Below, one piece after another: positions 2,520 to 39,974 of a stretch of DNA of 40,770 bases. Within the stretch, counting starts at the first letter, position 1. Each line of letters opens with the position of its first letter. This DNA is from Escherichia phage mellemsur. The position numbers and the translations under genes are program-made. The DNA is taken from sequence record MN850570.1; one strand, written 5' to 3'. Under the pieces are notes generated by a model, which saw only the letters and a list, made by a program, of their open reading frames with translations, made no database searches and was not told where the DNA came from.

Positions 2520-2909
2520 TTACTCCACTACCCAAAACAGTTCACCGTCATAAGTCCAAGCGGTATGCTGCCCGGCTTCCATCTGCTCGCCTGTTTTGCT
2601 GACCAGCTTGCCAGCAGGCTTGCCCGGATACGGTGAATCCATGAAGATTGCATCATCATCTTTGGTCACTACCATGATGCAGTCCTGTTCAAGAGCTTTA
2701 CAGAACAGCTTAACAGCCTGCCTGATTTCGTAGATTCCATCGACAGGAAATACCATGCTCAACTCATACTGATTGTCGAACTTGCCTGTCAGCGTGACCG
2801 GAATCACTCCGAACATATCCTGCACCGTTCGCAGTGCCTTGCAATGAAGCGCCAGATTAACACATTCAGCGTTATTCGGACGATATGCGCTTGCATAGAT
2901 ACGGTACAT
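2520..2909 (-). CDS. hypothetical protein, first gene downstream of early promoter cluster
   Basis: 129-aa ORF with GGAG Shine-Dalgarno; preceded by about 400-nt leader. Confidence 0.5.
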   Translation of the reverse strand: MYRIYASAYRPNNAECVNLALHCKALRTVQDMFGVIPVTLTGKFDNQYELSMVFPVDGIYEIRQAVKLFCKALEQDCIMVVTKDDDAIFMDSPYPGKPAGKLVSKTGEQMEAGQHTAWTYDGELFWVVE

Positions 2910-3341
2910 AGTTATTTCTCCAGTTGTTGGCTATTTTCAGGTGGATAGTGAACCCATTGTGACGCGCCGTACAGTCTGCACTCGTTGGCATTGATTGGCT
3001 TGTCGGATTCACTACCCTGAAAAATCGCCCCGCCCATTTCGCGCCGTGGATATTGTCTGCATCCACTCTCAGGAGTCCTCCAGCAGTCCGGCTCACCGTT
3101 TCCAGCTTGCCTACCTACCCGCTTCACTCCGCGCCTTATAAGACGTTCGGGATTGTGCTGATACTGCGCTGCGTCTATCGCGCTTCTCCGTTCCCATCGC
3201 ACCGGGCGCTACCCCTATTGCCTTTCGGCGGTGCCCTCACCAGTTCCTAGCTGCGCCGGATACCCATGAGGCCGAGACACTACGTGGCCTGTTTACGTTC
3301 ACTCAGAGCAGGTTGTTTTGCAACCTTTCAACTCGGTGCTG

Positions 3342-3370
3342 ATTACATCACATCGTATTCAGCGTGTCAA
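3342..3370 (-). promoter_or_regulatory. sigma70-like early promoter (TTGACA-N17-TGTAAT on minus strand)
   Basis: plus-strand attaca at 3342-3347 and tgtcaa at 3365-3370 with 17-nt spacer. Confidence 0.45.
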
Positions 3371-3421
3371 CTACTTTTTACTTCTGACTGACTGGCTTGC
3401 TGCCCTGTCAATCTGGAGCGT

Positions 3422-3450
3422 ATTACAGCATACTCGTTTCATCCTGTCAA
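3422..3450 (-). promoter_or_regulatory. sigma70-like early promoter (TTGACA-N17-TGTAAT on minus strand)
   Basis: plus-strand attaca 3422-3427 and tgtcaa 3445-3450, 17-nt spacer. Confidence 0.45.
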
Positions 3451-3558
3451 CCGTTTTATTCAGCGCCCGTTCTGAGATGAATAATCCGTACCAGTTTGCC
3501 TGCGTGTGTTTTAACGTCTTTATCAATGACTGTTTGGCTTGCTGGCTGACGTGGAAGC

Positions 3559-3587
3559 ATTACAGCATAGTGAGCTTGCCTTGTCAA
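3559..3587 (-). promoter_or_regulatory. sigma70-like early promoter (TTGACA-N17-TGTAAT on minus strand)
   Basis: plus-strand attaca 3559-3564 and tgtcaa 3582-3587, 17-nt spacer. Confidence 0.45.
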
Positions 3588-3661
3588 TACACTCCAGATT
3601 GTTAAAGAGCAGTGCTACCGTTCAATCTTGTCTACTGGGCTAGTGCCTTTCGACGTGATGA

Positions 3662-3691
3662 ATTACAGCACATAACCAAAACAGTTTGCAA
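3662..3691 (-). promoter_or_regulatory. sigma70-like early promoter (TTGCAA-N18-TGTAAT on minus strand)
   Basis: plus-strand attaca 3662-3667 and ttgcaa 3686-3691, 18-nt spacer. Confidence 0.4.
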
Positions 3692-3712
3692 GTATTATTT
3701 TCAAGAAAAGTG

Positions 3713-3731
3713 ATAAGTTACTGTAATCATT
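3713..3731. repeat. direct repeat copy 1 (ataagttactgtaatcatt) in AT-rich spacer
   Basis: 19/19 identity with 3792-3810; flanks also similar (gagatta / agataatta). Confidence 0.6.
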
Positions 3732-3791
3732 GAGATTAAAGTTTGATTGGATAATCACAACACTGGATAGAATACCGTTATCAGATAGGTC

Positions 3792-3810
3792 ATAAGTTAC
3801 TGTAATCATT
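3792..3810. repeat. direct repeat copy 2 (ataagttactgtaatcatt)
   Basis: identical to 3713-3731, about 79 bp apart. Confidence 0.6.
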
Positions 3811-3818
3811 AGATAATT

Positions 3819-3850
3819 ATGAAAGTGTCTATAGTGATATAGTATCGCTA
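3819..3850 (-). promoter_or_regulatory. conserved element copy B (minus strand reads tagcgatactatatcactatagacactttcat)
   Basis: 21-nt core tatcactatagacactttcat identical to 25712-25732 (there on plus strand); contains CACTATAGA, the core shared with T7/SP6-type promoters. Confidence 0.4.
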
Positions 3851-4320
3851 GATACGCAGAGCGAGCGCGGCGCAGCCGAAACAAGCGAGCGCCGAACGGA
3901 TGACGGATGGCAGACCGTAGGACTGACAGACGGCAGACAGTGAAGGCAGTAGGACAGTAACAGCAGGTAGCAGAGCATGACGCGCAGAGCTGGCAGGCGC
4001 AGACAGTAGACCGGCACACCACACAGCAGGACGGCAGCACCACGCCGCACACCGCTACACACCAGCACCACACAGCACCACGAAAAGAGACAGATACCCG
4101 CACGACCGAGCGCAGCACGCAGCACCGCACAGCCAGCGCAGAGCGTCCCCATAGGACAGCACCGCACAGCACAGCCAGCAGGACAGCGCACAGCACGTCA
4201 CACGGCAGACGATGAAACGCGACACGCACGAGCTATACCGCACGCAGGCAATCCTCTTGACGCGCCGCGCAGCGCACGCGAGCAAATATCGCGCACGTCG
4301 CGAGGCTAATCCGCGCACAC
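3851..4320. repeat. T-depleted (plus strand) degenerate short-repeat tract, presumed genome terminus / terminal-repeat region
   Basis: Manual count roughly 29 T in about 470 nt; recurring CAGCAC/CACAGCA/GACAGC units; lies between last late gene and early promoters. Confidence 0.65.
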
Positions 4321-4384
4321 GTCATGGGGGTACGCGCGGTCATTTGGGTCGAGGGAGGGCCAAGCATAAACGTGCAATTTTCAA

Positions 4385-4406
4385 GCCGGGGTATTGCACC
4401 CACGGC
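4385..4406 (-). terminator. possible hairpin downstream of endolysin gene
   Basis: imperfect GC stem gccgggg...ccacggc; A/U-rich but not U-run tail; weak. Confidence 0.2.
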
Positions 4407-4435
4407 CTGTTCATTGCCTCAGCTTTTGGATACCC

Positions 4436-4972
4436 CTACAGCGTCGCACAGTAAGCGCTACAGCGTTTTGCACGAGCAACCAAGGCATCCCTATAGCGAA
4501 CCACTGTCGGGGCTGTAGAAGCCTTTAGGAACGCAATACGAAGGTCACAGATGGCTGCTGCTGCGGAGTGAGGTTCCAGACGTTTGGCTGCTGCCACGGT
4601 AGCAGGGCCAATAACCCCGTCTTGTGCAACGCCGCATACCCGCTGTAGAGCTTTCGCCGCACGGGAGACACCGGAGTTGACACCGTAGTCAAACACGGCA
4701 CATGCAATCGCAGGGTGAAGCTCGTCACCTCGGATGGGGGCGTAGTAATCCCGTCGATAGATTGCTTCGGCTTGTGCTTTGGTGAGGTCTTTGATAGGCA
4801 CGCAAATAGTACCGCCAAGCCCAGTAGGGACACCACAAGCTCGGCCATCCAGTTTGCCATCACGAGCGTCGCTAATTCCATGATTCGTTTCCCCTCCGGT
4901 ATCGCCGGGCAGCTTGGTGTAACCACCTTCTGCCAGCCCGGTGAACCGCATACAGATTTCAAAGTTAGTCAT
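4436..4972 (-). CDS. endolysin, GH108-type N-acetylmuramidase with C-terminal peptidoglycan-binding-like domain
   Basis: N-terminal EGGY...D-x-GG-x-T-x-x-GI motif typical of GH108; no signal/SAR sequence; ATGA overlap with upstream gene. Confidence 0.75.
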   Translation of the reverse strand: MTNFEICMRFTGLAEGGYTKLPGDTGGETNHGISDARDGKLDGRACGVPTGLGGTICVPIKDLTKAQAEAIYRRDYYAPIRGDELHPAIACAVFDYGVNSGVSRAAKALQRVCGVAQDGVIGPATVAAAKRLEPHSAAAAICDLRIAFLKASTAPTVVRYRDALVARAKRCSAYCATL

Positions 4973-5355
4973 TACATCCCCAGTAGTGTAGTGATGAAGG
5001 CTTGCAGTGAGCTTAAGTCACCAGCCTTGATTGCTAAGTAGATACCGCTACACAGGGATGCAGTTAAGAGACACCATTTGACAGCGTGAGCCGCCGCCGT
5101 AAACAACTTACCGATATGGCTCATAGTCTTTTGAATGTCCTGAATTTGCTCAACCACAAGGAGCTGCTGTTGAACCGTCTGCCAGCGGAGGTCGTTCTCA
5201 GCCAGCTTGGAAATCATTGCAGCATCGCCCTTTTCAAGAGTGGCGATTTGTACCTCGTGCTTGTCAAGTCGAAGTTCTACGGTCTGCATACGAGCCTCCA
5301 CTGCACCCATACGCGAGTGGATGTTAGGAGATGGCTCCTTCTTTGCTTCCGTCAT
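4972..5355 (-). CDS. lysis-associated membrane protein, putative holin (alternative start at 5289)
   Basis: Coiled-coil-like N-terminus plus single C-terminal TMD (AVKWCLLTASLCSGIYLAI); immediately upstream of endolysin; GGAGG Shine-Dalgarno before internal ATG at 5289. Confidence 0.35.
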   Translation of the reverse strand: MTEAKKEPSPNIHSRMGAVEARMQTVELRLDKHEVQIATLEKGDAAMISKLAENDLRWQTVQQQLLVVEQIQDIQKTMSHIGKLFTAAAHAVKWCLLTASLCSGIYLAIKAGDLSSLQAFITTLLGM

Positions 5356-5812
5356 CTTTCACTTTCCTTTTCCACGGAGATGGTACAAACCACATGACTA
5401 AACCAAGGATACACGTAAGGCCCATGCCGAAAGCCCATAGGAGGCTGCGTGGGTCGCTCTGAGAGACGATAACTGTGCGAGCCTGTACGTTTCCTTGGGT
5501 CATTTGCGACCCCTGCTTAGAAGCGTTTACAGAGCCTCCTGAGACGTCCTTGATGGATGTGCCATTCGAACCCTGCTTAGCGGTATCCACTTTCGCGTTG
5601 CCAGATACGTCACCGACTTCGGTTTCATCGGACTGTTTCGCAGTCACACCGATACCTTGCTTCGTATTTTCTGCACCTACCTGAGCCGTCAGTTCCGGCT
5701 TGTTGGGAGATACAGCCGAAGTTACAGCAGACAGTGCGCTAGTTGCGGAGCAGCCCGTCAGAGTCAGCGACGCTGATAGGACTGCCCCGGCCATTAGCCG
5801 AGACAGTTTCAT
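5324..5812 (-). CDS. outer-membrane lipoprotein with C-terminal transmembrane anchor, candidate unimolecular spanin
   Basis: Signal peptide with lipobox LTGC; Ser/Thr/Lys-rich region with KQG repeats; C-terminal TMD LLWAFGMGLTCILGLVMWFV and basic tail; adjacent to holin-like gene and endolysin. Confidence 0.5.
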   Translation of the reverse strand: MKLSRLMAGAVLSASLTLTGCSATSALSAVTSAVSPNKPELTAQVGAENTKQGIGVTAKQSDETEVGDVSGNAKVDTAKQGSNGTSIKDVSGGSVNASKQGSQMTQGNVQARTVIVSQSDPRSLLWAFGMGLTCILGLVMWFVPSPWKRKVKDDGSKEGAIS

Positions 5813-5822
5813 GAGATACCCC

Positions 5823-6017
5823 TTACGCTGCGGCGTTCGTCAGGTTAGTGAGCGCCGTTTGAACACGGGTCACGAACTCTTGGTAATACGCCACCAGCTC
5901 AGTGTTGGTGGTATCGAAGAAGTAGTCTTCCGTCCAAACGTTCAGATACTTGGCCGCCATATTACAGGCTGCCACGAACTCCGCACGTTCAGCAGCGGTA
6001 GAGTCAACAAGTGCCAT
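5823..6017 (-). CDS. hypothetical protein
   Basis: 64-aa ORF between post-terminase gene and lysis cassette. Confidence 0.45.
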   Translation of the reverse strand: MALVDSTAAERAEFVAACNMAAKYLNVWTEDYFFDTTNTELVAYYQEFVTRVQTALTNLTNAAA

Positions 6018-6028
6018 AAAGATTCTCC

Positions 6029-6709
6029 TTAAGAGAGTGCGATGCCAGTGATTACACCACTAGCGACAGTGAAGGTAACAGTATCCACGTAGGTGCCAGT
6101 TACCGGGATAGCCAGTGCATCACCGTTATCCACCATGGCCACAGTAGCGGCGAGGTTAAAGCCAGTGAGGGCACCGTTGCTTGCCACGAGAGCAGTGGCG
6201 TTATGAGCGTCAGCACCAGCAGAGTTACGGATGGAGTAAGTCGAACCGTTAAGCACTGCATCGGCGTTAGCTGGGAGCCGCACATTGCTCAGCAGGCCGT
6301 CAGCTACACGGGCGGTGGCAGTGGTGATGCCGAGGATAGAGCCGTCGAAGCGACGAATCTCAGTTGAGTCAGTGTGGTCTACCAGTGCTGCGGTAGACAG
6401 GACGAGCTGTACGTTATCCAGCGTGGTGCCAGTAACGTTGGCTGTGGCATTGTGCGCGTCGTTACCTGCGGAGTTGACCACAGATACAGTAGCGCCGTCA
6501 GCCAGCAGAGCGGAACCTTCCGGCGTACCAGCATAGCCAGCCGCCTCAAGTGCCGCCACCAGATTGGTGATAGCCGTTTCAATATCAGCAGCCTGAGCTG
6601 CCGTCACTGTACGGGTATCATTGATAAAGCGTTGAGTCACATTAGCTGCGATACCGCAGCGATAGCCAAGCTCATAACGCTGTGCATCAGTGATGGTGAT
6701 GATGGACAT
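6029..6709 (-). CDS. hypothetical protein with internal tandem duplication (possible virion-associated)
   Basis: 226 aa, Ala/Thr/Gly/Asn/Val-rich; NSAGNDAHNATANVTG and NSAGADAHNATALVAS repeat units; start overlaps terminase stop. Confidence 0.55.
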   Translation of the reverse strand: MSIITITDAQRYELGYRCGIAANVTQRFINDTRTVTAAQAADIETAITNLVAALEAAGYAGTPEGSALLADGATVSVVNSAGNDAHNATANVTGTTLDNVQLVLSTAALVDHTDSTEIRRFDGSILGITTATARVADGLLSNVRLPANADAVLNGSTYSIRNSAGADAHNATALVASNGALTGFNLAATVAMVDNGDALAIPVTGTYVDTVTFTVASGVITGIALS

Positions 6710-8469
6710 TATTTGATTCTCCGTCGCGTGCCGCGCACAGGTTTATGGCTACGCCACTTCGAGTCATCGTAACCCATTGGGTTGGCAAGGAACTCGCGTG
6801 CGGCAGCCGTCTCGCGCTTGGCAGCTTCTTCATGTTCGTCCTGCTGTAGCACCTCAGCGTGCAGGTACACGGCAGCAGATAGGGTTTCGATACGGTCATC
6901 GTGTGGGATGGATTGACGGTCTTGTGTCAGGTTCTGGAGCTGCCAGAACAGGCTGAACTCTCGACCACCGTTGTTCATCCCGCGACACAGCCGCAGGTCT
7001 TCTTCAACAACGCACCAGTGTACGACGACACGGTGACGCTGCATGATTGGGCCAAGGCGGTTGATGATACGCACCTCTTTCTGGCCGGACGAGTACACGC
7101 CTTCACAGCCAATGGCCAAGCTCTGGCGCTTAATCTCACCTCGGTACATGTTGGTCACGGTGCCGTGGCCCATGTTATCCTCAATGACCAGCCGTTTAAC
7201 CCCGGTTTCAGCGAGCCACTCTACCGCCGCCTTGATGTTTTCCTCCGTCTGGCCGCCGTGGTAGACGTGCATACCGATGACGTGGATAAACGGGCCGACA
7301 GAAGCGGTGGCAATGATAACTGATTCGTCCGACCCACCACCAGCAGGGTCAAGAAACGCCGAGGTATTTTCGAATGGTACATAAGTGTCCGAGAAATCAG
7401 CAGCCAAGAATAGCTGAGCACGAGCCAGTGGGAAATCCAGTGGCAGCTCGGCGGCATGGCGCGGGTGGTTCGACCAATGCAGAACCTCCGGCGCGGACTG
7501 CGTTGAGCCGTGGAAGAAGATTAAGTCTTTGAGATGTAACGTTTGTTTGAGCGCATCCGACAGCGACGTGTCCAGCATGAACTGCAACTGGAAGCCTGCC
7601 TGCTGGTAGTCTCGTTCGTTCTGCAACTGCTTTTCTTCGGAGTAGCGTTGCGGGTCAGTCTGTGCGCCACGGTTCCCAAGGATACCGTGTCCGGTACGCA
7701 GCTCAGGGTGGCCTTCCATCTTCTGCTTAATCCACGGGGCCAGACAGCCGCCGTAGCGTTCTTCTTCCTCAACCGTTGGGAAACGACCGGGCCAGATGCG
7801 AACGTCGAAGCCACGCTGTGGGAGCGTGTTGTAGATGGAGTCTTGAGTCTGTGGCGTGCCGAGGTACAGAATCTCTGCACCATCGTTGGCGATAGCCGCG
7901 AACTCTTTGGTCAGGGTGTTGATACGGGCGCGGTTGGCAGGAGAGCTACCGTTACTGGTAGTCTCCACGTCATCGGCAATCAACAGCGATACGTGGTTCC
8001 CCTGTAGCTGGCCGAAGATACCGACCGCTTTTACAGAGGGCTGTTTGTCAGGGATACGGAACGCGTGATGCACGTCGAAGCCGTCAGTAAATGACGTACG
8101 TGCGCCAGCGCGAGTCTCAGGCTTGAGCCATTCCAGACGTTCCCACTGCATGATAGCCGACACGATAGCGTGCGACAGCGTACCAGCATAGTCGTCGGAA
8201 CCGGACACAAGCAGGACAGTGGCGTTCGGCATCTGCACAAATTCGTACAGAGCGCGAGCAATACCGATGGTGGACTTTGCCTCACCACGCTGCGCCATGA
8301 CGCACTTGTTCTTGAGCGTCCTGTCGGCCATGTAGCGGCCAATGTCGAGCTGCATTTCAGTGAGGTCAAAGCCCAGCCATGCGAAGTAGTCATGCAGGAA
8401 CAGCGGGAAGTTGTTCTCGTAGTGGGCGCGAACGATTCCTGCCATCACCATGCGGCGTTGTAAATCCAT
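6709..8469 (-). CDS. terminase large subunit
   Basis: 586 aa (same length class as T7 gp19); position after tailspike and small ORF as in T7-like late operon. Confidence 0.75.
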   Translation of the reverse strand: MDLQRRMVMAGIVRAHYENNFPLFLHDYFAWLGFDLTEMQLDIGRYMADRTLKNKCVMAQRGEAKSTIGIARALYEFVQMPNATVLLVSGSDDYAGTLSHAIVSAIMQWERLEWLKPETRAGARTSFTDGFDVHHAFRIPDKQPSVKAVGIFGQLQGNHVSLLIADDVETTSNGSSPANRARINTLTKEFAAIANDGAEILYLGTPQTQDSIYNTLPQRGFDVRIWPGRFPTVEEEERYGGCLAPWIKQKMEGHPELRTGHGILGNRGAQTDPQRYSEEKQLQNERDYQQAGFQLQFMLDTSLSDALKQTLHLKDLIFFHGSTQSAPEVLHWSNHPRHAAELPLDFPLARAQLFLAADFSDTYVPFENTSAFLDPAGGGSDESVIIATASVGPFIHVIGMHVYHGGQTEENIKAAVEWLAETGVKRLVIEDNMGHGTVTNMYRGEIKRQSLAIGCEGVYSSGQKEVRIINRLGPIMQRHRVVVHWCVVEEDLRLCRGMNNGGREFSLFWQLQNLTQDRQSIPHDDRIETLSAAVYLHAEVLQQDEHEEAAKRETAAAREFLANPMGYDDSKWRSHKPVRGTRRRIK

Positions 8470-8774
8470 TAGTGCATCATCCCGCTATCTTCTGCGATTG
8501 AGTTGATGGCAGCAGACATGATATCTTTACGACCTGCTTCCGTTTTCTCGTTATTGAGCTGCTCTTGCAGCGCGAGTAAATCGTCGGCGTGGTCTTTATC
8601 AGCCTGAATACCGTTATCTTTCAGGAACTGGCGAAGTACGGACAGCTCAGCCGCCGCCATAGGTTCGATGATATTGCCGTGTTCATCTTTCCTACGAGCG
8701 TCGGCCAAGCGGTCGGACAGATACTCCACCAGCATCCGGTGCAGCCCGTCGAGCTGCTTATTCACGGATGCCAT
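8469..8774 (-). CDS. putative terminase small subunit
   Basis: 101-aa helical/acidic protein immediately upstream of large terminase with TAATG overlap; assignment by synteny only. Confidence 0.45.
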   Translation of the reverse strand: MASVNKQLDGLHRMLVEYLSDRLADARRKDEHGNIIEPMAAAELSVLRQFLKDNGIQADKDHADDLLALQEQLNNEKTEAGRKDIMSAAINSIAEDSGMMH

Positions 8775-8785
8775 GTGGTTTCTCC

Positions 8786-11158
8786 TTAGATGTAAGCCAC
8801 CGGGTAGGTAGCGGCGAGCTGCGTTCCCGCAGGGATTGCCGTCACAAGGGGCGGTGTAATGTCGATGCGCACCGGGTTTCCGATGTTGTTGTCCACCTGA
8901 TATGGAGCACGCACCACCGTTACAGTGAGCGTACCGCCGCTCGGCCCGGCACCCGGAATGTTGAGCCGAGTACCAGCAGAGATTGGCTTATGGTAAAGCC
9001 ACGAGGTGGATGCCTGAGTACCAGCCGGAGTCAGGTTCTGCTCCAGATACGTCTGGCCAGCGGCAGCAGCACGTACCTTGAAGTTGTTGCCATCATCCGG
9101 GATATACGCACCGAACCGGGTCACGATGAAATTGCCACCTGAGCCATCGGTCTTGAACAGCACAGTACCTTCGCAGAACTCTTTCCCGGTAGGGAACTCA
9201 TTACCGTCAAGGGTAGCGAGGTCGTTCGGCAGCGTGTACATGCGGTTGACCGGGGACAGGATGACACCCACGTTACCTTGGATGTTGGTGTACGGGATAG
9301 CACGCACGTTGGAGTTCAGCGTACTGATATCCGAGTAGCGAGCCTTACTGTACAGCGCACCCTCGGTCATGCCCGGCCCGTAGAAGTTCACGTTCACCAT
9401 GTTGAGAACAGTCTTCTTACGCGGGTACAGACCGTTGGATGACGTACCGCCGCTGGAGTCGTCGCCCACAGCGTCGAACTCCACACCAGTAACGTTGGTC
9501 ATATTCAACAGAGTTGCCACACCGAACAGCGTCATCTTGTAGCAGTGGATATTTTCAAGGTGGTACGTGTTGGTGTTGTCATCGTCGGAGCCGACACCAG
9601 CGTAGAAGCGCCCGGTGCGGGTCTGTACGTTACGCACAGTCATGTCAAACGATGGGCAAGCTACACCCGGCGTACCGCCAGCACCTGCTTGGTTCGCACC
9701 CCACTCCAGCATCACGACACGAATGTCGCCCGGCGCGGTAGACCCGGTGTTCAGAGGCTCACCGACTACACCGTCAATGGTCATGCGTTTGCAGCCGTAC
9801 GTGATTACGCCAGCGGCGCTCAGGCCAGTACCGATAGACACGGATAGGTCAGGGTTGGCCACTACGTTCTCGCAGGTGCTGTCACGCGTAACCTCGAAGT
9901 GGACGACCTGACGCACGCCACGCGGAGCATGGACGTTACGGACAGTGACGTTCTTCGCATACTGCGTCTCAGCAGCATCCCAACCAAACGGGCCTTGACC
10001 AGCGATACCGATACCGATACCCCAGTTGGACAGGGGGATTGGCGCATTGGTGCCGTCGATGTTCTCAAGGAAGATGTTCTCAATCAGCAGGCCACCATCA
10101 TAGTGCTTGTTGATTACGTTCATCTCGATACCGTCACCCTGCATATCCATCATGGTAATGCCACGGATAACGCCGTTGGTGATAGCCTCACCAGTACCCT
10201 GCTGGAGAATACCGAACTTGCCATTGCGGTGGATACCGTTCTCAATGACGTAACTGCCCCCGGCGATGTTGCCTTGGAACAGGATAGACGTAACCTTGGA
10301 GTTACTCGGCGCACTGGTGAACTCATAGTCAGCGATGCGTACCTCACCACCCCAGTAAGCTACACGGACAGTGGAGGCCACGAAGTTACGGAAGGTGGAG
10401 TTCAGTAGGCGAATGTCAGCCTTGCCGTGCCACGTACCGCCTACGACCTCAATACCGTCCATCAGGACAGTGGAGTCCACCGTACCTTCCCAGCCACGAG
10501 CGTCAACGACCTTGCCGTTGGCTTTCGCATAGTCGAAGCAAGCCTGTACCGCAGCGGCGACAGAGGCGTACCCGGTGTTGTTGGTGAACTCGGACAGGCA
10601 GACGGTATCCTGACGGTCGAGGAACGTGCCCCCGCCGAGAGTACCAATCCACTTACCGCCGTCAGCCATTGCCAGAGCAATCGCCAGAGCGGAGTCCGGG
10701 ATATCAACCAGAGGAATCATGAACGGCTGGCCATTGCTGTCAAAGCCCAGTGCCTTGTTGCGGCGGCCAGCGACGTTCGGTAGTGCGTTGATAGAGACCT
10801 CGGAGTTCGGAACACGGACGGCGCGGTCAAGCGGCGCGAGCCATGCTTCCTGAGTTTCCTCAGCCTTGAACAGAATCTGCTCAAAGTTCTCGTCAAGGTT
10901 CTGCCCGGTGAAGGCAGCATCTTGGCCGAACTTGTTCAGCAGAACCTCAGTGGTGTAGCGTTGTAGTCTGACAATCACCCCGGCGAGCGGGGCGGTGTCG
11001 AAGATAATCTGTTTGGTCACAGAGTTATAGGTGTACCCTTCCGTTTGGAGTTCGGAGTTGAGGTACACCTGAATCTCAGTGAACACGCGCTGCTCAAACG
11101 TGACGAGGAATGCGGTCTGTGAACCGTTCGCCACGTAAGCATTGTAGCTGTTCGCCAT
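8786..11158 (-). CDS. tail fiber / tailspike with beta-helix (depolymerase-like) domain
   Basis: 790 aa; N-terminus resembles T7 gp17-type particle-attachment region; central region has repetitive G-x-x-NV / VxNV beta-helix-like pattern. Confidence 0.65.
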   Translation of the reverse strand: MANSYNAYVANGSQTAFLVTFEQRVFTEIQVYLNSELQTEGYTYNSVTKQIIFDTAPLAGVIVRLQRYTTEVLLNKFGQDAAFTGQNLDENFEQILFKAEETQEAWLAPLDRAVRVPNSEVSINALPNVAGRRNKALGFDSNGQPFMIPLVDIPDSALAIALAMADGGKWIGTLGGGTFLDRQDTVCLSEFTNNTGYASVAAAVQACFDYAKANGKVVDARGWEGTVDSTVLMDGIEVVGGTWHGKADIRLLNSTFRNFVASTVRVAYWGGEVRIADYEFTSAPSNSKVTSILFQGNIAGGSYVIENGIHRNGKFGILQQGTGEAITNGVIRGITMMDMQGDGIEMNVINKHYDGGLLIENIFLENIDGTNAPIPLSNWGIGIGIAGQGPFGWDAAETQYAKNVTVRNVHAPRGVRQVVHFEVTRDSTCENVVANPDLSVSIGTGLSAAGVITYGCKRMTIDGVVGEPLNTGSTAPGDIRVVMLEWGANQAGAGGTPGVACPSFDMTVRNVQTRTGRFYAGVGSDDDNTNTYHLENIHCYKMTLFGVATLLNMTNVTGVEFDAVGDDSSGGTSSNGLYPRKKTVLNMVNVNFYGPGMTEGALYSKARYSDISTLNSNVRAIPYTNIQGNVGVILSPVNRMYTLPNDLATLDGNEFPTGKEFCEGTVLFKTDGSGGNFIVTRFGAYIPDDGNNFKVRAAAAGQTYLEQNLTPAGTQASTSWLYHKPISAGTRLNIPGAGPSGGTLTVTVVRAPYQVDNNIGNPVRIDITPPLVTAIPAGTQLAATYPVAYI

Positions 11159-14100
11159 TATTCACCCTTAACTGCTTCGTTGAGTGCTCGGACACCCGGC
11201 ACAATGGAGATTAGTGGGAGAGCCTGAATGATGTTCCCGGCTGCCTTGCGAGCGTTATGCCCGGCTTGGTCGATATCGCCAGTGGCCAGACTACCTGCTG
11301 TAGCAGAGGTGGCACCAGCAACACCGTACAGACGGTCGAGGAACAACAGACCCGGCGCACCAAAGCTGCGCTGCTGCCCGGTCAGAACTCCAGTGAACTC
11401 AGAGGCAAAGCCGATAGCGCCGAGATAGTTCAGTGCCTGACCAGCCAGTTTGTTCGGAGCCATGGTATCCGGGTCAGAGAATGCCTTACCGGAAATCACG
11501 TTATTGGCAGCAGTGGCCATCATCGCCAGCGGATACTGGTACGCCATCAGCGTTGCCAGCCCACGGGCACCCTCACGATTCCAAGTACCAACCAGAGTCT
11601 TGTTGTGCGTTGCCGCGACGAATCGACGGAACGTAAACAGGAACTTACCCAGCGTACTGAACTCAGCAAATGCAGGCAGCTCACCTACGCGAGCGCGAAC
11701 AATAGCGTCATCCATGGCATTCATCATGACAATGCGAGAGCGATTGAACACCCCTTCATCCCAAGCATCAGGCTTGGTGCCATGAGTACCAACCTGCTTG
11801 CGAATGTCAGCCAGCAGCGCGTCATTGGCACCGTAGGTTTTCATGGCTGCAATAGCCTTGGCATCACCTTCGGCTGCCTTACGCAGCGTCTGCATCACGA
11901 GCGCAGCATTGGTTCGAGTCTGGTGGAAGTGGATGTATTTCTGCATGTTGATGAACATCGTGGCATCGCGCAGGTGTTCCATACGCATGACCCACGGAGA
12001 CTTATCCGCAGAGAACATGTCGTCATAGTGCTGCATGATTGGGCGCATACGAATATCACTCGCTACAGCCGCAGTCAGCGCTTCCTCGGCATCCAGAGCC
12101 AATTGACGACCTTCCTTAGTAGACACCCTCATTTGCTTAAATAGTGCGCGTGCTTCGGGAATTGTACGCATCATGGCGCGAAACGTATTGACTGCCCCGA
12201 AACGTTGCATCATCGTGCCGTATTCTACCAACTGCCACAGGCCAGATGCAGCCAGACCAGTCGCCTGAGTCAGTGCCGAAAGCTGGCGCATGAACTCCGG
12301 CATTTCCTCACCAACAGGAGCACCTTGGTAGTAAGCCATGATGTTGTCGTATTGGTCGAGAGCCTTACGGCGTGCCGTGCTATCCGGGATGGATTTGGCC
12401 AGAGCCTCGCGAGCGGCGGCGCGTTCAGCATCAGTACCCAGTCCAGCCTCATGCAGAGCCAGTCGCCCGGTAATGCGGCGGTTATAGCTGTCCATCATAC
12501 TGGTGATGCTGTCGTCGAACAGGTCACGCACCTGCAAGTTAGGGCCGAGCTGGTGCATCATGTCGATGTTGATACGGCTCTTGAGCATCGACGGTCGGCC
12601 AGCGTCCGAGCCAGACTCACGAAGGAGTGCGGAAGCACGGGCCTTGGCAGCCTCGTCGAGACCTTTCGCGTTCTCAATGATTTCGAGCAATTCATCGCGA
12701 CCTTCCTTGTTGATAATCATACCGGAGTTGTCGATACCGTAACCCTTACGACGAGCACGCTCAACCATGGCATGGGCAATGACGTTGGCAGTCGGACGGT
12801 CAGTACCGATACCGCGCTGCACAGCGGTCGTCATCTGCTTCATGAATGGCTTCTTGCCGAGCAACTGCTCAGCCTGCTCAATCTTGGTCACGTTCATCCG
12901 GCGCGGGTAGTAGTACGGGTTCTTGTCTACGAAGCCCGGTTCCACCATGCCCTTCGCTTCCAGCTCGCGGCCCACGGCGCGGGAGTATTCCCCCAGTCGG
13001 TCGGCGGCAGCGGCCACGTTAGCGTTGGCACCACGGAACTCTTTGTCAATCATGCGCTTGTCCAGCTCGAAACGGACAGCAGCTTCGAACTCCTGCTGCG
13101 CCCGGCGATAGCCCACTGGGTCACGGAAGCGACGGATGTTAGTCCAGCCGTCAGTGTTCAGTGCATTACGCAGGGTGTCCTCGTACTGGTTCAGCAGCAC
13201 GCCAAACCGAGCCTGAGTCTCACGCTGGATTGATGCAGCGGAAGTCATGTTCGGGTTCAGTGGGTCATCCAGCAGTCGTCCGGCGAGCGCACTGGCTTCA
13301 TCGGAGTGCTGACTGAATGACTTGAACAGAGACCATTCAAGGAACGGACGCTTAGGGTTGGTCTGCTCACCGCGACGAGCGAGGTCGAGACCGCGCTGCG
13401 CAGTGGCCCGGATGGATTCCGGCACCTCGTCAACCACAGTAGCGCCACGACCACCAAAGCCCAAGGACATGGCCATTGGCGACATAGCATTGTTCGGGTC
13501 GAACTGCGGTGGGTTGTTCGGGTCAATGCCATTACGACGCTGCATCTCTGCTGCAAATTCCTCTGGCGACAGGTCGGCCAGCGAGCGCTGTACCGGAGCC
13601 GGGCGATAGAAGGCAGTGGTGGCCGCCCCGTGCAGGGCAGCCGCAAAGATGATTTCGTTCTGAGACACTGGGCGTGCTTCGTTACCCACCGCTGTCATAG
13701 TGGCAGCAGTTGAAGCTGCACCGACAGCGGCGGTTCCGAGGCGACCTAATTTCAGGGCAGTGCCTGCTCCCATCGAGAGCAGGTCAGTGGCGAGGTACAG
13801 CGGGTCAGCGAATTGCAGAACCGCGTTCATCACCGGGGCAGTGTGAGCCAACTGGGTACGCTCGCGCATCTCTTGGAGCTGCTGCGTACGCCAGTTGAAC
13901 TCGTCCATGGATTTGGATTTAAACAGGAAGGTTCTGTCGTCTTCACCTACCGGGAACTGCACGTTCTGCAAAGCCTCGTTGGGCTTGAAGTCCGGGTCAG
14001 CCTGAAAGGTAGGCTTGTTGAAGGCGGCATCAAAGAGCTGAGTGGTATCCCAGTTCTTCACAGAAGCGCTCAACGCCGTGGCCATCGGAGTCGCTTCCAG

Positions 14101-17699: not shown

Positions 17700-20144
17700 T
17701 TAGATTCTCCGAACTTTGTTGTAGAACTTGATGTAGTAGCCCAGCCCCTGAATGTTCAGGTCGCCAGCCGTGGACGAGTCCACAACCATGCTGCTGGATT
17801 CCACCTCAAGACCCATGCGAACTTTCAAGTGCGCACGCTTAGCCAGCGTCGCTGACTCCAGACCTAATTCCTGACTGGTGTACCGGATAGGGCTGCTGAT
17901 AATGTTCAGTGCCGAGTACGCACCCCGGTCGCTCGCTGTGATGTTGAACAGGCTCGTGTACCGCAACGTGAAGTTGTAGTGCATGATGACCATCTTGTTC
18001 ACATCCATGTACGAGCCATCCTGATTGAACACTCGCGGTGGCGTAGGGCTGAACACTGCTTTGAATCGCAGGCCCACATACAGTGAGGTGCTGCCATACG
18101 ATGGCTGGAGATAGACACGGCGGTTCGTGGTGTCGATGGACTTGATACCCACCTCAGCCCCGATGTAGTTGCCGGACGGCACTACGTTCGTCATGAAATC
18201 CCAGTTGCCCTCAGTCTGGTAGCGGTACTGGATGATATCCCACAGCGCCTTCTGCTCGCCTGTCGCGGCGAACTGAATGTACGAGCTGTCCGTGGCCGGG
18301 TTCGTCACAGTCATCAACTGGGCGTAGTCAATGGCCGGGAGGAATCGCGCCGGGTCAGTCGGGTCAGAGGAGTCTCGCATGGACAGCGTGAGCAAGTTCA
18401 TGTGGCCCTGCTGCTCAACCAGCACAACCAGAACCTCACGTACGAACCACGCAGCCTGCACGGTGCCGTAGATTTCCCAGCGGTGCCACGAGGACAGAAC
18501 CTTCTCGTCACCAGACCAGAGGTACTCGTTCACGTACAGCGTGGACTTCTCAGTCGTCGAGCCAAACACGACGATGTTGTTCGTGGTGCTGGCAGAGATG
18601 TACGAGTTGGCCCCTTCCAGATAGGTCGGCAGGTGGTCGGTCACATCCTGACTCACGTACTGCAAATCCGTGTAGCCGGACGGCAGCATCTCCTTGATGG
18701 AGAACGAGCTGTTCGAGCGCGGGTACGCATAATACAGGCTGCGGCCAGAGGTGGTCGGCGCTACGCCAGTGTCCATCTGGTACGTCGAGGTCAACACAGC
18801 GGTGGCGTTGTTCGGCGTGAGGATTTGGTTACGTCCGGGGATAACGGCTTGGTGTTCTTCACTGGCCAGAATCAGGTCAGAGTTGAACGGGATGCCGTAC
18901 CGGAACGATGCCCCGGCGAAGCTGGACGCAGTGAACTCAATACGGTCGTCGTCCAGTACCTGCGTCACAGTCGTACGGAAGAAGTTGTTGCGGTCTTCCT
19001 TGTTGCTGGAACCCATGGTGATGTACGGCCCGGAGAACACAATCAGGCGACCTTGGAAGGAGGCCAGTCCAGTAATGCCCACGCCATCAGCATCAGTGAA
19101 TGCTGGGATGGAGTTGGTCTTATCATCACCAGCCAGTCGGCCCGGCCACGTACCCTGCGTAAAGGTGTGCTGGTTCGTGGTTGAGGTCGTGCTAAAAATC
19201 AGCGGCATGGTGCTGGGGTTAATCCCGGTCGGGGAGCCGTAGGCACCCTTCTCCACCCAGCGTGAGTTCGCGTAATCCCACTGGAAATACTGAGCGAAGC
19301 TGTCGTCGCCCACGGTCATGATGAAGCCACCAGCCTGAGTCGGCAGACGTGCCGGGAGCTTGGTGGTTAAATCGACGCGGTGCGTGTTTGAGGCAATCGC
19401 ATAGCTGGAACCAGTGTTGGTTGATACGTTCAGGTCAGTGTACGCGGCAGTGGTCTGGAGGTACATGTATGCACCGTCCACCTGCACGACCTCAAGCCCG
19501 GTCGCGCCGCCGATGGCAGCGTCGAGCTGGGACTTCAACTGGCCGATGATGTACTCAGGAGTTGCCTGCGCAGATGCACCGGGCGCGTCTGAGTTCGGAG
19601 TCGTGTACGATGCAGACACAGCACCACCGCTGGTCTCAATACGGACGGTGTACTGCTTGCCGTAGCCGCCAGCCAGCACAAAGAAGTAACCCCGGCGACC
19701 CGGATTCATACGCGTCTCGTTCTCCAGAAGCACGGGCAGCTTGGAGCAGTTGGCAACATACATGGTGTTGCCCACGGTAGCGAATACAATGTCGTCGGGG
19801 TTGTTCGTGACGAGATAGCTGGACTGGCCCATGAACTGGACAGTCTCAGTCTCGACGATGGATGTGACGTAACCAGTCTTCGTGTTGACGATGAACGTGG
19901 TGATGCCCCATCCGAGGTTAGTGGTATAGAAGCGTAAGTGGCCGAAGTTACCAAGGCTCCAGACGTTCGCATTAGTGGAGTCCACAGTGCGGTGCAGTCG
20001 GGTGCCGGGGCGTTTACGCAGGCCACGAACAGTATCAGAGGTCATGTTGACCTGTTCCTCAACCTGCGATAGCTGTCGGTCGGTATAGACCTGCTGGCTC
20101 ACGCCGCCGAGGATGGATTTATAAGCGCCTTGGTATACTGGCAT
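17700..20144 (-). CDS. tail tubular protein B
   Basis: 814 aa (T7 gp12 size class); follows tail tubular A. Confidence 0.75.
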   Translation of the reverse strand: MPVYQGAYKSILGGVSQQVYTDRQLSQVEEQVNMTSDTVRGLRKRPGTRLHRTVDSTNANVWSLGNFGHLRFYTTNLGWGITTFIVNTKTGYVTSIVETETVQFMGQSSYLVTNNPDDIVFATVGNTMYVANCSKLPVLLENETRMNPGRRGYFFVLAGGYGKQYTVRIETSGGAVSASYTTPNSDAPGASAQATPEYIIGQLKSQLDAAIGGATGLEVVQVDGAYMYLQTTAAYTDLNVSTNTGSSYAIASNTHRVDLTTKLPARLPTQAGGFIMTVGDDSFAQYFQWDYANSRWVEKGAYGSPTGINPSTMPLIFSTTSTTNQHTFTQGTWPGRLAGDDKTNSIPAFTDADGVGITGLASFQGRLIVFSGPYITMGSSNKEDRNNFFRTTVTQVLDDDRIEFTASSFAGASFRYGIPFNSDLILASEEHQAVIPGRNQILTPNNATAVLTSTYQMDTGVAPTTSGRSLYYAYPRSNSSFSIKEMLPSGYTDLQYVSQDVTDHLPTYLEGANSYISASTTNNIVVFGSTTEKSTLYVNEYLWSGDEKVLSSWHRWEIYGTVQAAWFVREVLVVLVEQQGHMNLLTLSMRDSSDPTDPARFLPAIDYAQLMTVTNPATDSSYIQFAATGEQKALWDIIQYRYQTEGNWDFMTNVVPSGNYIGAEVGIKSIDTTNRRVYLQPSYGSTSLYVGLRFKAVFSPTPPRVFNQDGSYMDVNKMVIMHYNFTLRYTSLFNITASDRGAYSALNIISSPIRYTSQELGLESATLAKRAHLKVRMGLEVESSSMVVDSSTAGDLNIQGLGYYIKFYNKVRRI

Positions 20145-20692
20145 TATCCTCTCCGAGCACTCTCATAGCGCCACCAGCTTTTACGCTGGCGAGCATTGAA
20201 TCGACGCTGACGGGTATGAATGGTCTGGCACTGCTGGAGCGCCATGGCGTAGCCGCCCGTCACGCTGGCAGGTGGGTTGTCTCCCATGTCGTCCGCGTAC
20301 GCCGAGATAGCTGCTTGATAAGCAACGAGTCTTTGTACCGGACTTGGCAGGTCATCCCAACCCAAGTCATAAGTCACCAATCCCGGAACATCTTCTGTAA
20401 AAACAAAGGTTTGGGATTGCGCGTTGTAAAGATACCCGCCACGCACGATGCACTCAAACCCATCAGGGATGAAGCTCAGAGCGTCGGCGGGGTATTTTAC
20501 GCGACCGTCAGTTTCTCGCGGGATGGTGATTCGGATGTTGTTGAACCACCAACCGTCAGTGAGAACTTCCTCCTGAGCAATACCAATCTTGTCCAGCGCG
20601 AGCGTGACTGACGGGTTTCGAATCTCAGTGGAAGATACAGTGTGCTCAGACAATGCCCGAAGTACGATGTTTACAGCTTCGAGTAGAGTCAT
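20144..20692 (-). CDS. tail tubular protein A
   Basis: 182 aa (T7 gp11 size class); ATGA overlap with downstream gene. Confidence 0.7.
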   Translation of the reverse strand: MTLLEAVNIVLRALSEHTVSSTEIRNPSVTLALDKIGIAQEEVLTDGWWFNNIRITIPRETDGRVKYPADALSFIPDGFECIVRGGYLYNAQSQTFVFTEDVPGLVTYDLGWDDLPSPVQRLVAYQAAISAYADDMGDNPPASVTGGYAMALQQCQTIHTRQRRFNARQRKSWWRYESARRG

Positions 20693-25044: not shown

Positions 25045-25463
25045 TACGGTTTCTCCAAATCAATGAAGCGGTACTCCTGAACGTAAGGCCGCACCATATG
25101 GGAGTAACCGCACCAACGCACACCCGCTGAACGGGCCACGTCTTTGAGTACACGGAGGATGGCACGCATCACTCCACGGTTTCTGTACTGGGGCCAGACG
25201 TATGAGGCCATAACGACCACCATCTCGCCCACATGAATATCGAATAATCTGCCGATGTGAGCGACAGCCATGAGGCTGCCGTCATCGTCAGTGATGTAAA
25301 CGTCAACGCAACCGGAGGCGGTGGCCTCATACATGCTGTCAACAATCACATCGGGAGATAGGTCTGACCATGGCCGCTCAGCTTGAATACCTTCGGCCAC
25401 AGCACGGCGAATGTCGAGTGGCATCGTCGTGTGTGATGTATTTCCCATAGTAGACACTTTCAT
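25044..25463 (-). CDS. hypothetical protein, possible GNAT-like acetyltransferase
   Basis: 139 aa; segment WPQYRNRGVMRAIL resembles GNAT motif A; weak. Confidence 0.35.
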   Translation of the reverse strand: MKVSTMGNTSHTTMPLDIRRAVAEGIQAERPWSDLSPDVIVDSMYEATASGCVDVYITDDDGSLMAVAHIGRLFDIHVGEMVVVMASYVWPQYRNRGVMRAILRVLKDVARSAGVRWCGYSHMVRPYVQEYRFIDLEKP

Positions 25464-25699: not shown

Positions 25700-25732
25700 T
25701 AGCGTGATATCTATCACTATAGACACTTTCAT
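25700..25732 (+). promoter_or_regulatory. conserved element copy A (plus strand tagcgtgatatctatcactatagacactttcat)
   Basis: Near-identical to reverse complement of 3819-3850; core CACTATAGA as in T7/SP6 promoters; flanked by 12-bp palindrome gctaccggtagc (25692-25703) and GC hairpin (25676-25692). Confidence 0.4.
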
Positions 25733-25760: not shown

Positions 25761-28193
25761 TCAGCAGAAAAACTTGCTTGATTGTTTCACAAGCTGGATA
25801 TCCAGATTGCCCCGTTCGGGTGCAACAGCATTGTATCGTACAGCAAGTTGTTGAATTGGGTCATGTTGCTCATACATCTGTACGAACTTTTCACGAATGA
25901 CCTTGTGGAGTAACCCGGCATGTGCAGCCGCCACCCCGAACGAATCGTGGATGGACACCATGTACACCCCGTTATTCCACATCTCCCACAACACCTTCAT
26001 CATGTGGCTAGCATCCATGGCGTGTACGAAATTCGGAGCAATCGCAGCGGCACACTTCCTGCCGTCCGGCTTGTCCAGATACTCGCGCAGCTTAATGCTG
26101 TGGATACCCATGAGGTTGATGTTGTTGAGCATCGTCTCCTTGCTGGCTTGATACAGGTTAACCACCCGCAACCCCGATGGTGCAATGATTTCCACGTACT
26201 CGCCGTTGGCTGCCGCCTCAACAGCGATAGCCTGCAACCATGCCATCAGCTCTGCCGCCTTCGGCACAACGCGAGGGATTGCATTCCACATAAACTCTGC
26301 GATGAACTGCGCACACTCCAGCAGGCTCTTGCCGTCCGGCAGCTTGACCCGGTTCTCTCGCAGGTACAGGCAGTAGTAGTCCACCATGCCGTGCCGGGTT
26401 GCCCCGTACACGTAGGTCATCACTGGCTTCTTAGCCATCGCCCGGACAATACCGATTGAAACAAGCCACGTACCCATCTGCGTCGGTGACTGCGCCTCAC
26501 TATCTTCAAGAGCCTGCATCGCCGCTGCTGCCGTCTTGAGATATATGTCTGCTTTTCTTCCCACGCTATTGATAAGATTGACAGCAGCACCGCCAACTTC
26601 ATCTCGTAGCATCGCACTGAGGTGCTGTAATCCTGAACAGGTAGCGTCCCATTGCGTAACCACTCGGCAGGGATAAGTCTCAGGACTTCCTGAGTCGATA
26701 GCGCGAATGAGTTCAACAGAGGCAGCCCACGCGCTGATAGGGCTATCGGCTTCTGACCAGAACGAATCAAATGCCTCTGGAAGACGGCACGCCTCACGTA
26801 GTCGGGGGAGTGTCTTGTCCGTCCACGCCGCCCGGTCGTCGAAGTCTGTTGCGTCGTAGCCGAAGCAATTCGCAACATGAACCTTGAGCCAGAACAGCCC
26901 CTCAGTTCCGAGAGCCACTGGTTCCGCAAGCTCAAGCAGCGCTCGCACTGCGTCGATAGACTGAGGGTTAAGGGTCGAAGAATAATAAATTCGGCCCCGC
27001 GTATCGGCGTAAGTCGGGAGATAAATCCTATCGTACTGTGCATACCTGTCTGCCTCTTTGACTGCACCATTCAACGCCAGCATCTGCGACGTGAACTTAC
27101 GCAACTCATTGTAATACAAGCGAGTCTTCACCTTGTACTCATGAGCTTCGGCACCCATCTGCTGCTGCATCTCTGGTGGGAACTTGCTGATGTACTGTGC
27201 AAAGCTCACACCAGCGGGGATGGTGAACGGAAGTGTAGGCTCACGGGGTGGCACAGGCAGCCCCATAACGCCTGTACGGTTCGTTCGCAGGAACTCCAGT
27301 ACCATTGGGTTAACTCGGTACGGAACGCTGCTGAGCATCATACACGGCTCTATAACGGGGGTCGGGTCAACGTTCAATGCACGATACCCTTTGTGGTTCA
27401 TGCGGCTCATGACCCGGTACATCGCCGCCTGCCCATCGGAATGCCACATACCGCTGCGACCGTTCGGGGCAATCTGCTTCGGTGGGATAATCAGCGGTGG
27501 GCAGCACATGCCATCAGCACGCGGCATGTCCAGCCAGTCGTTCATCGTAGCCAGCACATCTTCGTGCAGTGCGAAGTGTGCCGTACCGCGCTGGCGCTGG
27601 TTGCCGCCGGCGCGAATCGTGGACACCAGACCAGTTGGCTCGACGCACTTCATCATCAGCTTGCCAATGGTAATCAGCGCACGCTGCGGCAGCACATCAA
27701 TCTCTACCCCAACGTTCGCCGCCGACGCACGCGCTTTGTTGTAGACGTGGTTCGCTGACTTCGAGCGAGACTTCTTCACGTCCTGCTTAACGCGCTCCAT
27801 GTACGCCGCCTGCTGTGGCCCGGTCTGCTTCGCCCGGAGGTACACTACCTCAGCCATCAGTGCCTTGCCCATGCTCTTGAGCAGACTCAGTACCGCCTGC
27901 TCCGACGCAGCACCGGACACCGCCATGCTCAGTGCGAGAGAGGCACACGCTTTGGTGCCAATCTCACGCATGTACGTCCGGTACTGCGCACCATACCCAC
28001 GGGTCGTTTCGCTCAAGGTTTCTTGCATCGCAGCTTCGACCAGAGGATAAGCCTCAACCATCATACGCTGGAGCAACGGCACCGACCCGGCGCGGCCACT
28101 GGCCATCGCCTCTTTGATATTATCCAGCCAGCCCTCGCGGTGTCTGGCTCGCGCTTCTTCTTCAAGTCGAATCTGCTCTGCAAGTAAATCCAC
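25761..28193 (-). CDS. single-subunit DNA-dependent RNA polymerase (T7/phiKMV-type)
   Basis: 810 aa; DATCSGLQHLSAML (T7 RNAP motif A region) and SIHDSFG (motif C region). Confidence 0.9.
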   Translation of the reverse strand: MDLLAEQIRLEEEARARHREGWLDNIKEAMASGRAGSVPLLQRMMVEAYPLVEAAMQETLSETTRGYGAQYRTYMREIGTKACASLALSMAVSGAASEQAVLSLLKSMGKALMAEVVYLRAKQTGPQQAAYMERVKQDVKKSRSKSANHVYNKARASAANVGVEIDVLPQRALITIGKLMMKCVEPTGLVSTIRAGGNQRQRGTAHFALHEDVLATMNDWLDMPRADGMCCPPLIIPPKQIAPNGRSGMWHSDGQAAMYRVMSRMNHKGYRALNVDPTPVIEPCMMLSSVPYRVNPMVLEFLRTNRTGVMGLPVPPREPTLPFTIPAGVSFAQYISKFPPEMQQQMGAEAHEYKVKTRLYYNELRKFTSQMLALNGAVKEADRYAQYDRIYLPTYADTRGRIYYSSTLNPQSIDAVRALLELAEPVALGTEGLFWLKVHVANCFGYDATDFDDRAAWTDKTLPRLREACRLPEAFDSFWSEADSPISAWAASVELIRAIDSGSPETYPCRVVTQWDATCSGLQHLSAMLRDEVGGAAVNLINSVGRKADIYLKTAAAAMQALEDSEAQSPTQMGTWLVSIGIVRAMAKKPVMTYVYGATRHGMVDYYCLYLRENRVKLPDGKSLLECAQFIAEFMWNAIPRVVPKAAELMAWLQAIAVEAAANGEYVEIIAPSGLRVVNLYQASKETMLNNINLMGIHSIKLREYLDKPDGRKCAAAIAPNFVHAMDASHMMKVLWEMWNNGVYMVSIHDSFGVAAAHAGLLHKVIREKFVQMYEQHDPIQQLAVRYNAVAPERGNLDIQLVKQSSKFFC

Positions 28194-39902: not shown

Positions 39903-39923
39903 AGTTCACCTCACGTTGGCCAA

Positions 39924-39938
39924 TATAGACACCTTCAT
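39924..39938 (+). promoter_or_regulatory. partial third copy of conserved element (plus tatagacaccttcat), preceded by hairpin 39940-39964
   Basis: 14/15 match to core of elements A/B; located about 21 nt upstream (gene direction) of ATG at 39902; 7-bp stem atgcctg/caggcat. Confidence 0.3.
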
Positions 39939-39974
39939 AATGCCTGCTAAATAATAACAGGCATGAGTAGATGA

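Follow-up and report, generated by a model that had tools for sequence, protein, structure and literature searches.

The sequence analysed is that of Escherichia phage mellemsur (MN850570.1), a stretch of 40,770 nt referred to here as the window. The region matches phages of Bonnellvirus (Autographiviridae), with identity up to 94.6%. The large open reading frames all lie on the minus strand and the gene order is phiKMV-like. We read the window as a complete genome, circularly permuted and with a single collapsed terminal repeat, since both of its ends are contiguous in relatives. Rightward denotes the gene direction, which is the minus strand, and leftward the opposite (anti-gene) direction, which is the plus strand and runs towards higher window coordinates. 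The features relevant to the left end are the following.

4100..4352, minus strand: probable terminal-repeat region, by homology to the annotated 259-bp repeats of phage J8-65; its inner boundary is placed approximately
4081..4099, minus strand: conserved motif GGGTATCTGTCTCTTTTCG, containing TATCTGT, at the edge of the unique region that adjoins the repeat
3851..4260, minus strand: A-poor tract, in which A makes up 5.9% of gene-strand bases (22.9% over the whole genome)
3842..3855, plus strand: short inverted repeat GTATC-GCTA-GATAC, within the first ~22 nt of the predicted leftward transcript
3818..3839, plus strand: copy A (tATGAAAGTGTCTATAGTGATA), a putative promoter assigned from its motif family, its polarity, covariation with a loop of the phage RNA polymerase (RNAP) and parallels with Dev-CD-23823 and LUZ19 P001
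3662..3817, minus strand: AT-rich spacer with two 28-nt direct repeats, then the first sigma70-like promoter
3691..3662, minus strand: first sigma70-like promoter, TTGACA/TTGCAA-N17-TGTAAT
3587..3559, 3450..3422 and 3370..3342, minus strand: three further sigma70-like early promoters of the same TTGACA/TTGCAA-N17-TGTAAT form
25761..28193, minus strand: gene for a single-subunit RNAP of 810 aa, E = 1e-57 to T7 RNAP

The physical left end is predicted at 4352, matching base 1 of J8-65 (TCGACCC). The A-poor tract has a G+C content of ~63% and, seen on the plus strand, is a T-depleted tract. The four sigma70-like sites are skipped by a stricter consensus scan because they carry G at position 2 of the -10 element. 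The RNAP gene stands at the end of the replication module. A preliminary description had reported an element at 3819-3850 next to a T-depleted tract and upstream of four host-type promoters, with a second copy near 25.7 kb, and in these respects it is accurate. The minus strand from 3850 to 3819 reads tagcgatactatatcactatagacactttcat exactly, and 21 nt of the element are perfectly repeated within the second copy (25700-25732), the chance expectation for such a perfect 21-nt pair being about 2e-4 in 40.8 kb. The 28-nt direct repeats (AATGATTACAGTAACTTAT...) between copy A and the first sigma70-like promoter occupy 3704-3731 and 3783-3810, 79 bp apart, and the promoter-proximal unit is kept across the genus.

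The repeated element belongs to a family. A polar motif, ATGAAAGTGTCTATA-GTG, occurs in four copies in the window. Copy A is opposite to the gene direction; the other three follow it.

25712..25732, minus strand: copy B, putative promoter in gene sense, 28 nt past the stop codon of the RNAP gene, with the late genes following
25443..25463, minus strand: copy C, in gene sense, overlapping the start codon of the gp36-like gene (ATGAAAGTGTCTAC-TATGGG)
39918..39938, minus strand: copy D (ATGAAGGTGTCTATATTGGCC), putative promoter, intergenic, in gene sense, ahead of the primase/helicase module

Copy C occupies the next gene junction after B, with the motif intact up to position 13 and divergent beyond. 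Copy D is flanked by a hairpin with a 7-bp stem on one side and by a Shine-Dalgarno sequence and start codon on the other. This hairpin, ATGCCTG-N10-GCAGGCAT at 39942-39967 (minus strand), lies directly upstream of copy D and mirrors the annotation of phage LIMEzero, in which a terminator followed by a phage promoter is placed at the equivalent site (7255-7313). Taken as a set, the copies are a repeated motif of ~20 bp and fixed polarity, with B and D in intergenic DNA ahead of the late and replication modules. A promoter of a T7-type single-subunit polymerase would have an AT-rich upstream edge, a TATA-like melting region and a purine start; (A/T)ATGAAA and CTATA are present and G is available at two positions, but the base that matches the mapped +1 of the Dev-CD-23823 promoter is T.

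The polarity of copy A is central to its interpretation. Within genomes, identity between copies is ~1.0 over ATGAAAGTnnCTnTA and ~0.9 at the TG two bases on, and falls to background beyond. The block with its TG is asymmetric about the palindrome CTATAG. Copies A and B are inverted with respect to each other, positions 3819-3839 of the plus strand being identical to 25732-25712 of the minus strand, and so cannot both face the same way with respect to the genes. The plus-strand reading of copy A agrees with B at 20/22 positions and with D at 18/22, the gene-strand reading at only 10/22 and 8/22. Since the conserved block is asymmetric and copy A carries it on the strand opposite to that of B, C and D, we infer that copy A fires leftward, and its exact start point is likewise deduced from the sequence.

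The preliminary description had assigned the element to the gene strand, in the same sense as the T7 promoter core, and likened it to the phage promoter that precedes the host promoters in T7, phiOL. This reading would have copy A act rightward on the gene strand (TATCACTATA-GACAC) and feed the early region. It is not without attraction. The gene-strand word TCACTATAG in copy A equals T7 positions -8 to +1 at 9/9, and KP34, Dev-CD-23823 and T7 each have a left-end copy that follows the gene direction. Like copy A, the phage promoter phiOL (nt 405) has the core CTATAG and occupies the stretch that separates the terminal repeat from the host early promoters, but it points rightward with the genes. 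The gene-strand resemblance to T7 arises because the core CTATAG is palindromic and a GTGA start region adjoins it. If the promoter acted rightward, the shared positions would be +1 to +11 while -17 to -5 would be unconserved, and there the J8-65 copies are wholly different. What survives of the earlier assignment is a phage promoter close to the left end that precedes the host-type promoters; its direction has to be reversed, and the analogy with phiOL lapses with it. We regard a rightward, phiOL-type promoter as very unlikely. Some weak rightward initiation from the gene strand of copy A may nevertheless occur, given the palindromic core and the 9/9 match to T7.

Is the arrangement particular to mellemsur? 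We compared it with nine other Bonnellvirus genomes and with LIMEzero, all oriented to the gene strand; the ten Bonnellvirus genomes are those of the window, aldrigsur, glasur, RZ4, ROV85, usur, Kc261, J8-65, smaasur and Lidtsur. The motif ATGAAAGTnnCTnT(A) is present in the gene direction past the RNAP stop codon (B) and ahead of the primase/helicase module (D) in all ten. A gene-sense copy C at the start of the gp36-like gene is seen in seven of the ten. Copy A is the sole reversed copy of the motif in each of the ten and always lies between the A-poor tract and the sigma70-like promoters, so that the left-end position reported earlier is kept in every relative examined, and the gene direction of phiOL is absent from copy A throughout.

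Some records of the relatives call for comment at these sites. That of glasur starts exactly at the inverted promoter copy (1-21), which is probably an assembly break at an inverted repeat and not a physical end. A CDS in J8-65 is annotated to start at 5664, on the ATG inside copy D, and the A-poor/T-poor tract, which is short of stop codons on both strands, contains several 'hypothetical protein' calls in relatives. These calls (J8-65 5664; glasur 41898-42374; Kc261 41017-41556; ROV85 23520-24700) are probable annotation artefacts.

The promoter motif varies across the genus and every one of the ten genomes has one shared variant across all its copies. The variants are set out here with the RNAP stretch aligned by HMMER to the T7 specificity loop (T7 residues ~739-758; residues ~684-700 of the mellemsur enzyme).

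Window and aldrigsur: promoter variant GTGT, loop ETMLNNINLMGIHS
Glasur, RZ4 and ROV85: promoter variant GTGA, loop EIALNNINLMGIHG
Usur and Kc261: promoter variant GCTA, loop ESPM-HLHLMGVHQ
J8-65, smaasur and Lidtsur: promoter variant GTAA with CTGT (GTAA..G), loop ETTM-GIKLMGVHA, slightly different in Lidtsur

The four promoter variants match four loop variants, and LIMEzero has a promoter and loop pair of its own, the pattern expected of co-evolution. The loop segment is about half different between polymerases that are ~91% identical overall. Copy C varies together with A and B, changing from T to A in glasur, RZ4 and ROV85. The T7 residues R746, N748, R756 and Q758 reportedly read the -7 to -11 region, a finding ascribed to Cheetham et al. 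1999; the four groups, in the order given, have N, N, H and G at the residue aligned to R746. Concerted evolution through recombination between copies could add to the covariation. Under a rightward reading of copy A, the positions that covary with the loop would fall in the transcribed region, which further argues against it.

These observations also bear on whether the element is a promoter at all. It might be bound by some other protein, or be a relic left when the left end recombined with the RNAP-gp34 junction. The motif does start ATGAAAGT, two copies overlap annotated start codons, and the longest identity is that of A with B. A relic, however, would not track four successive specificity variants, nor would it become LIMEzero-type in LIMEzero, and copy D lies between genes, with a separate Shine-Dalgarno sequence and start codon after it. 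A function other than that of a promoter is therefore most improbable. A protein-coding explanation of the ATG in the motif was considered separately and rejected: the frame opened by copy A runs for 7 codons in the window and is not homologous to the one opened in J8-65, and a separate Shine-Dalgarno sequence and ATG follow copy D, despite the overlap with start codons at copy C and at copy D of J8-65. On the evidence of motif family, polarity and covariation, copy A is very probably a promoter for the phage's own T7-type single-subunit RNAP, pointing leftward.

A precedent exists in a phage with mapped transcripts. In the Pseudomonas phage LUZ19, four phage-specific promoters were mapped by ONT-cappable-seq (Putzeys et al. 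2024, PMC10914365). Two of them, P007 and P008, are located directly past the RNAP gene, and one is in the structural region; P001 is antisense and its transcripts reach the right-end genes (PMC10914365). The P001 arrangement is kept in 15 other Phikmvvirus species, and the authors hypothesize that it shields against late read-through by head-on transcription (PMC10914365). We located the published P001-type motif in the LUZ19 sequence on the minus strand at 736-748, flanked by the repeat (1-472) with its A-poor tract and by the sigma70 promoters (913-1182). The spacing in J8-65 is nearly equal, with the repeat ending at 259 and copy A at 528-548, and by eye the A-poor tracts of LUZ19 and LIMEzero resemble that of mellemsur.

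The resemblance of P001 to copy A is one of organization. Each is a promoter assigned to the phage's own polymerase, has the repeat and A-poor tract on one side and the sigma70 promoters on the other, and faces away from the genes; each genome has few such promoters, with companions directly past the RNAP gene (B and C in mellemsur). Copy A therefore shares with P001 a consensus belonging to its own phage, location and orientation, and the companions after the RNAP gene. The sequences are unrelated (P001 is GgtTATGTCACacACAnnGG), the hosts differ, LUZ19 infecting Pseudomonas, and P001 is backed by mapped transcripts whereas copy A is a candidate identified from sequence. With these differences in mind, we consider copy A to be the Bonnellvirus counterpart of P001.

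LIMEzero (Waewaevirus, FR751545) provides a second case. Its record annotates putative phage promoters at 7294-7313 (TTTAAAGGCAATCACTAAGG) and 20330-20349 (TATAAAGGCAAGCACTATGA), both in gene sense. We find the same motif inverted at 637-656, the left-end position, where it is unannotated; it matches each annotated copy at 17/20 positions and lies between the A-poor tract and the annotated host promoters. The gene-sense promoters correspond to D and B in position, before the primase and after the RNAP gene, and the motifs of both groups begin TATGAA/TATAAA..G. They differ in the central specificity region, and the Bonnellvirus and LIMEzero polymerases are 70% identical.

The layout of the motif itself has a parallel in Dev-CD-23823; its promoter, AATGTATACCCCTATAT-ACAC, was validated in vitro and its +1 was mapped (Takatsuki et al. 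2025, PMC12272871). This promoter (AATGTATACCCCTATATACAC) shares with copy A the layout AATG-N7-CTATA and the direction in which it is read. The polymerase is distant from that of mellemsur and is absent from tblastn matches at E <= 1e-100. Dev-CD-23823 also differs in that its left-end copy is in gene sense and its sole antisense copy is just past the RNAP gene. There the copies are back to back (19301-19321 minus and 19334 plus), one aiming into the polymerase gene. Cronobacter phage Peggy, tried as a stand-in for Dev-CD-23823, lacks that promoter. In KP34 too the left-end copy follows the gene direction, and the outward layout is thus not universal.

T7 has a leftward promoter of its own, A0 (annotated at nt 224), placed after the terminal repeat and ahead of the early promoters. 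It is like copy A in place and direction but is used by the E. coli host polymerase instead of the phage enzyme. We know of no function for A0.

How might a leftward promoter operate at this location? The polymerase, once made in middle infection, would bind to the plus-strand ATGAAAGTGTCTATA and initiate at G3834 or G3836, or at a T by analogy with the Dev-CD-23823 +1. It would then transcribe leftward across the A-poor tract and the terminal repeat, producing a U-poor RNA and passing on its way the motif GGGTATCTGTCTCTTTTCG (4099..4081) beside the repeat. On a monomer the polymerase would run off the left end after ~520 nt. On a concatemer the transcript would continue antisense into the lysis genes (endolysin region) of the upstream genome copy.

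The RNA itself displays few signs of a function. Hairpins at the predicted transcript starts have energies of -6 to -8 kcal/mol, weak and short of formal covariation; copy B and the J8-65 copies also start with a small hairpin, with different pairing partners. RNAalifold applied to seven distinct sequences of the leftward transcript gives -6.4 kcal/mol with little covariation and no convincing structure, and single-sequence folding yields z-scores of -2.0 to +0.2. Rfam searches return no matches at the gathering threshold for the whole window and none at E <= 1 for 2800-4500. Terminator-like sites over 3800-12000 are no more frequent than in shuffled sequence, the plus-strand frequency of ATCTGTT is at chance level, and no terminator for the leftward transcript was found there. 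With neither a terminator nor a conserved RNA structure downstream, the RNA looks like a by-product of the act of transcription rather than a functional RNA.

The role we favour is the one hypothesized for P001. Head-on transcription from copy A might keep late read-through transcription out of the early region and the concatemer junction; we advance this role tentatively, as the likeliest of those considered but with somewhat less than an even chance of being correct. Such an insulating promoter possibly acts jointly with the repeat-adjacent TATCTGT motif. The motif, GGGTATCT(G/A)TCTCTTTT, is kept in all ten Bonnellvirus genomes, and the J8-65 copy, at 270-290, begins 13 nt past the annotated 259-bp repeat. 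In T7 the sequence ATCTGTT (161-167) is directly past the 160-bp terminal repeat. Polymerase pausing at this T7 concatemer-junction signal is required for concatemer processing. By comparison, the Bonnellvirus motif may act at the concatemer junction as a class II pause signal.

Two further roles, both compatible with copy A being a promoter, had been raised in the preliminary description. The first is in replication. Origins of T7, primary and secondary, depend on phage promoters, and transcription from copy A could similarly open or prime the left-end DNA; the copy lies outside a gene-expression context and adjoins the AT-rich spacer, ~190 bp in this accounting, with its two 28-nt direct repeats. 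The AT-rich region of the T7 primary origin is downstream of the promoters, however, whereas here it is behind copy A, and what lies downstream is the A-poor tract with its ~63% G+C. Leftward synthesis would in addition reach the end after ~520 nt. The cumulative GC skew is uninformative with regard to an origin. We consider an origin at this position unlikely.

The second role is in concatemer processing, with leftward transcription through the terminal repeat converging on TATCTGT to mark or open the repeat for cutting by terminase and duplication. The order repeat, TATCTGT motif, A-poor tract and outward promoter is kept across Bonnellvirus, LIMEzero has a similar order with a looser CTCTTTTCG motif, and the position of ATCTGTT in T7 and the need for pausing there are suggestive. 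Against this, the T7 signal acts on rightward transcription, so that it would be inactively oriented for a polymerase coming leftward. KP34 and Dev-CD-23823 also manage without an outward copy. A processing role appears improbable on balance, and a more specific proposal, in which outward promoter, A-poor tract and TATCTGT form one conserved module where polymerases converging on the concatemer junction mark or open the repeat for terminase cutting and repeat duplication, is distinctly doubtful.

A leftward promoter for the phage polymerase remains our preferred reading of copy A, and its significance should be judged against what was known. The antisense left-end promoter is a kind already described from Phikmvvirus in 2024, to which mellemsur copy A adds. 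What is extended is its range, since the outward arrangement now reaches two further genera, Bonnellvirus and that of LIMEzero, with promoters unrelated to the LUZ19 motif. The Bonnellvirus set comprises phages of E. coli, Enterobacter, Kosakonia, Cronobacter and Pantoea. That the same arrangement is seen despite unrelated promoters and polymerases only 70% identical argues that it is maintained by selection and is not a peculiarity of one genus. The analysis also yields a likely promoter consensus, with its specificity variants, for several single-subunit polymerases that are so far uncharacterised. Because E. coli K-12 supports the growth of Bonnellviruses, the function of this class of promoter is accessible to simple phage genetics. 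Should the doubtful module proposed above for the concatemer junction exist, it would be common to phiKMV-like phages of Pseudomonas, E. coli and Pantoea and genetically testable in K-12.

Two other properties of the mellemsur sequence are worth recording. The long untranslated leader that runs from the fourth early promoter to the SAMase gene (2905-3345, minus strand) has no Rfam match and is 98.2% identical to that of J8-65. The polymerases of the two phages are, in contrast, only 76% identical, and the disparity points to a recent mosaic exchange. Chi sites (GCTGGTGG) number seven, at 5891, 7337, 8726, 19327, 20171, 35667 and 39761, against ~2.7 expected; three of 100 shuffled sequences reached seven, and all of the sites are on the gene strand with none on the other.
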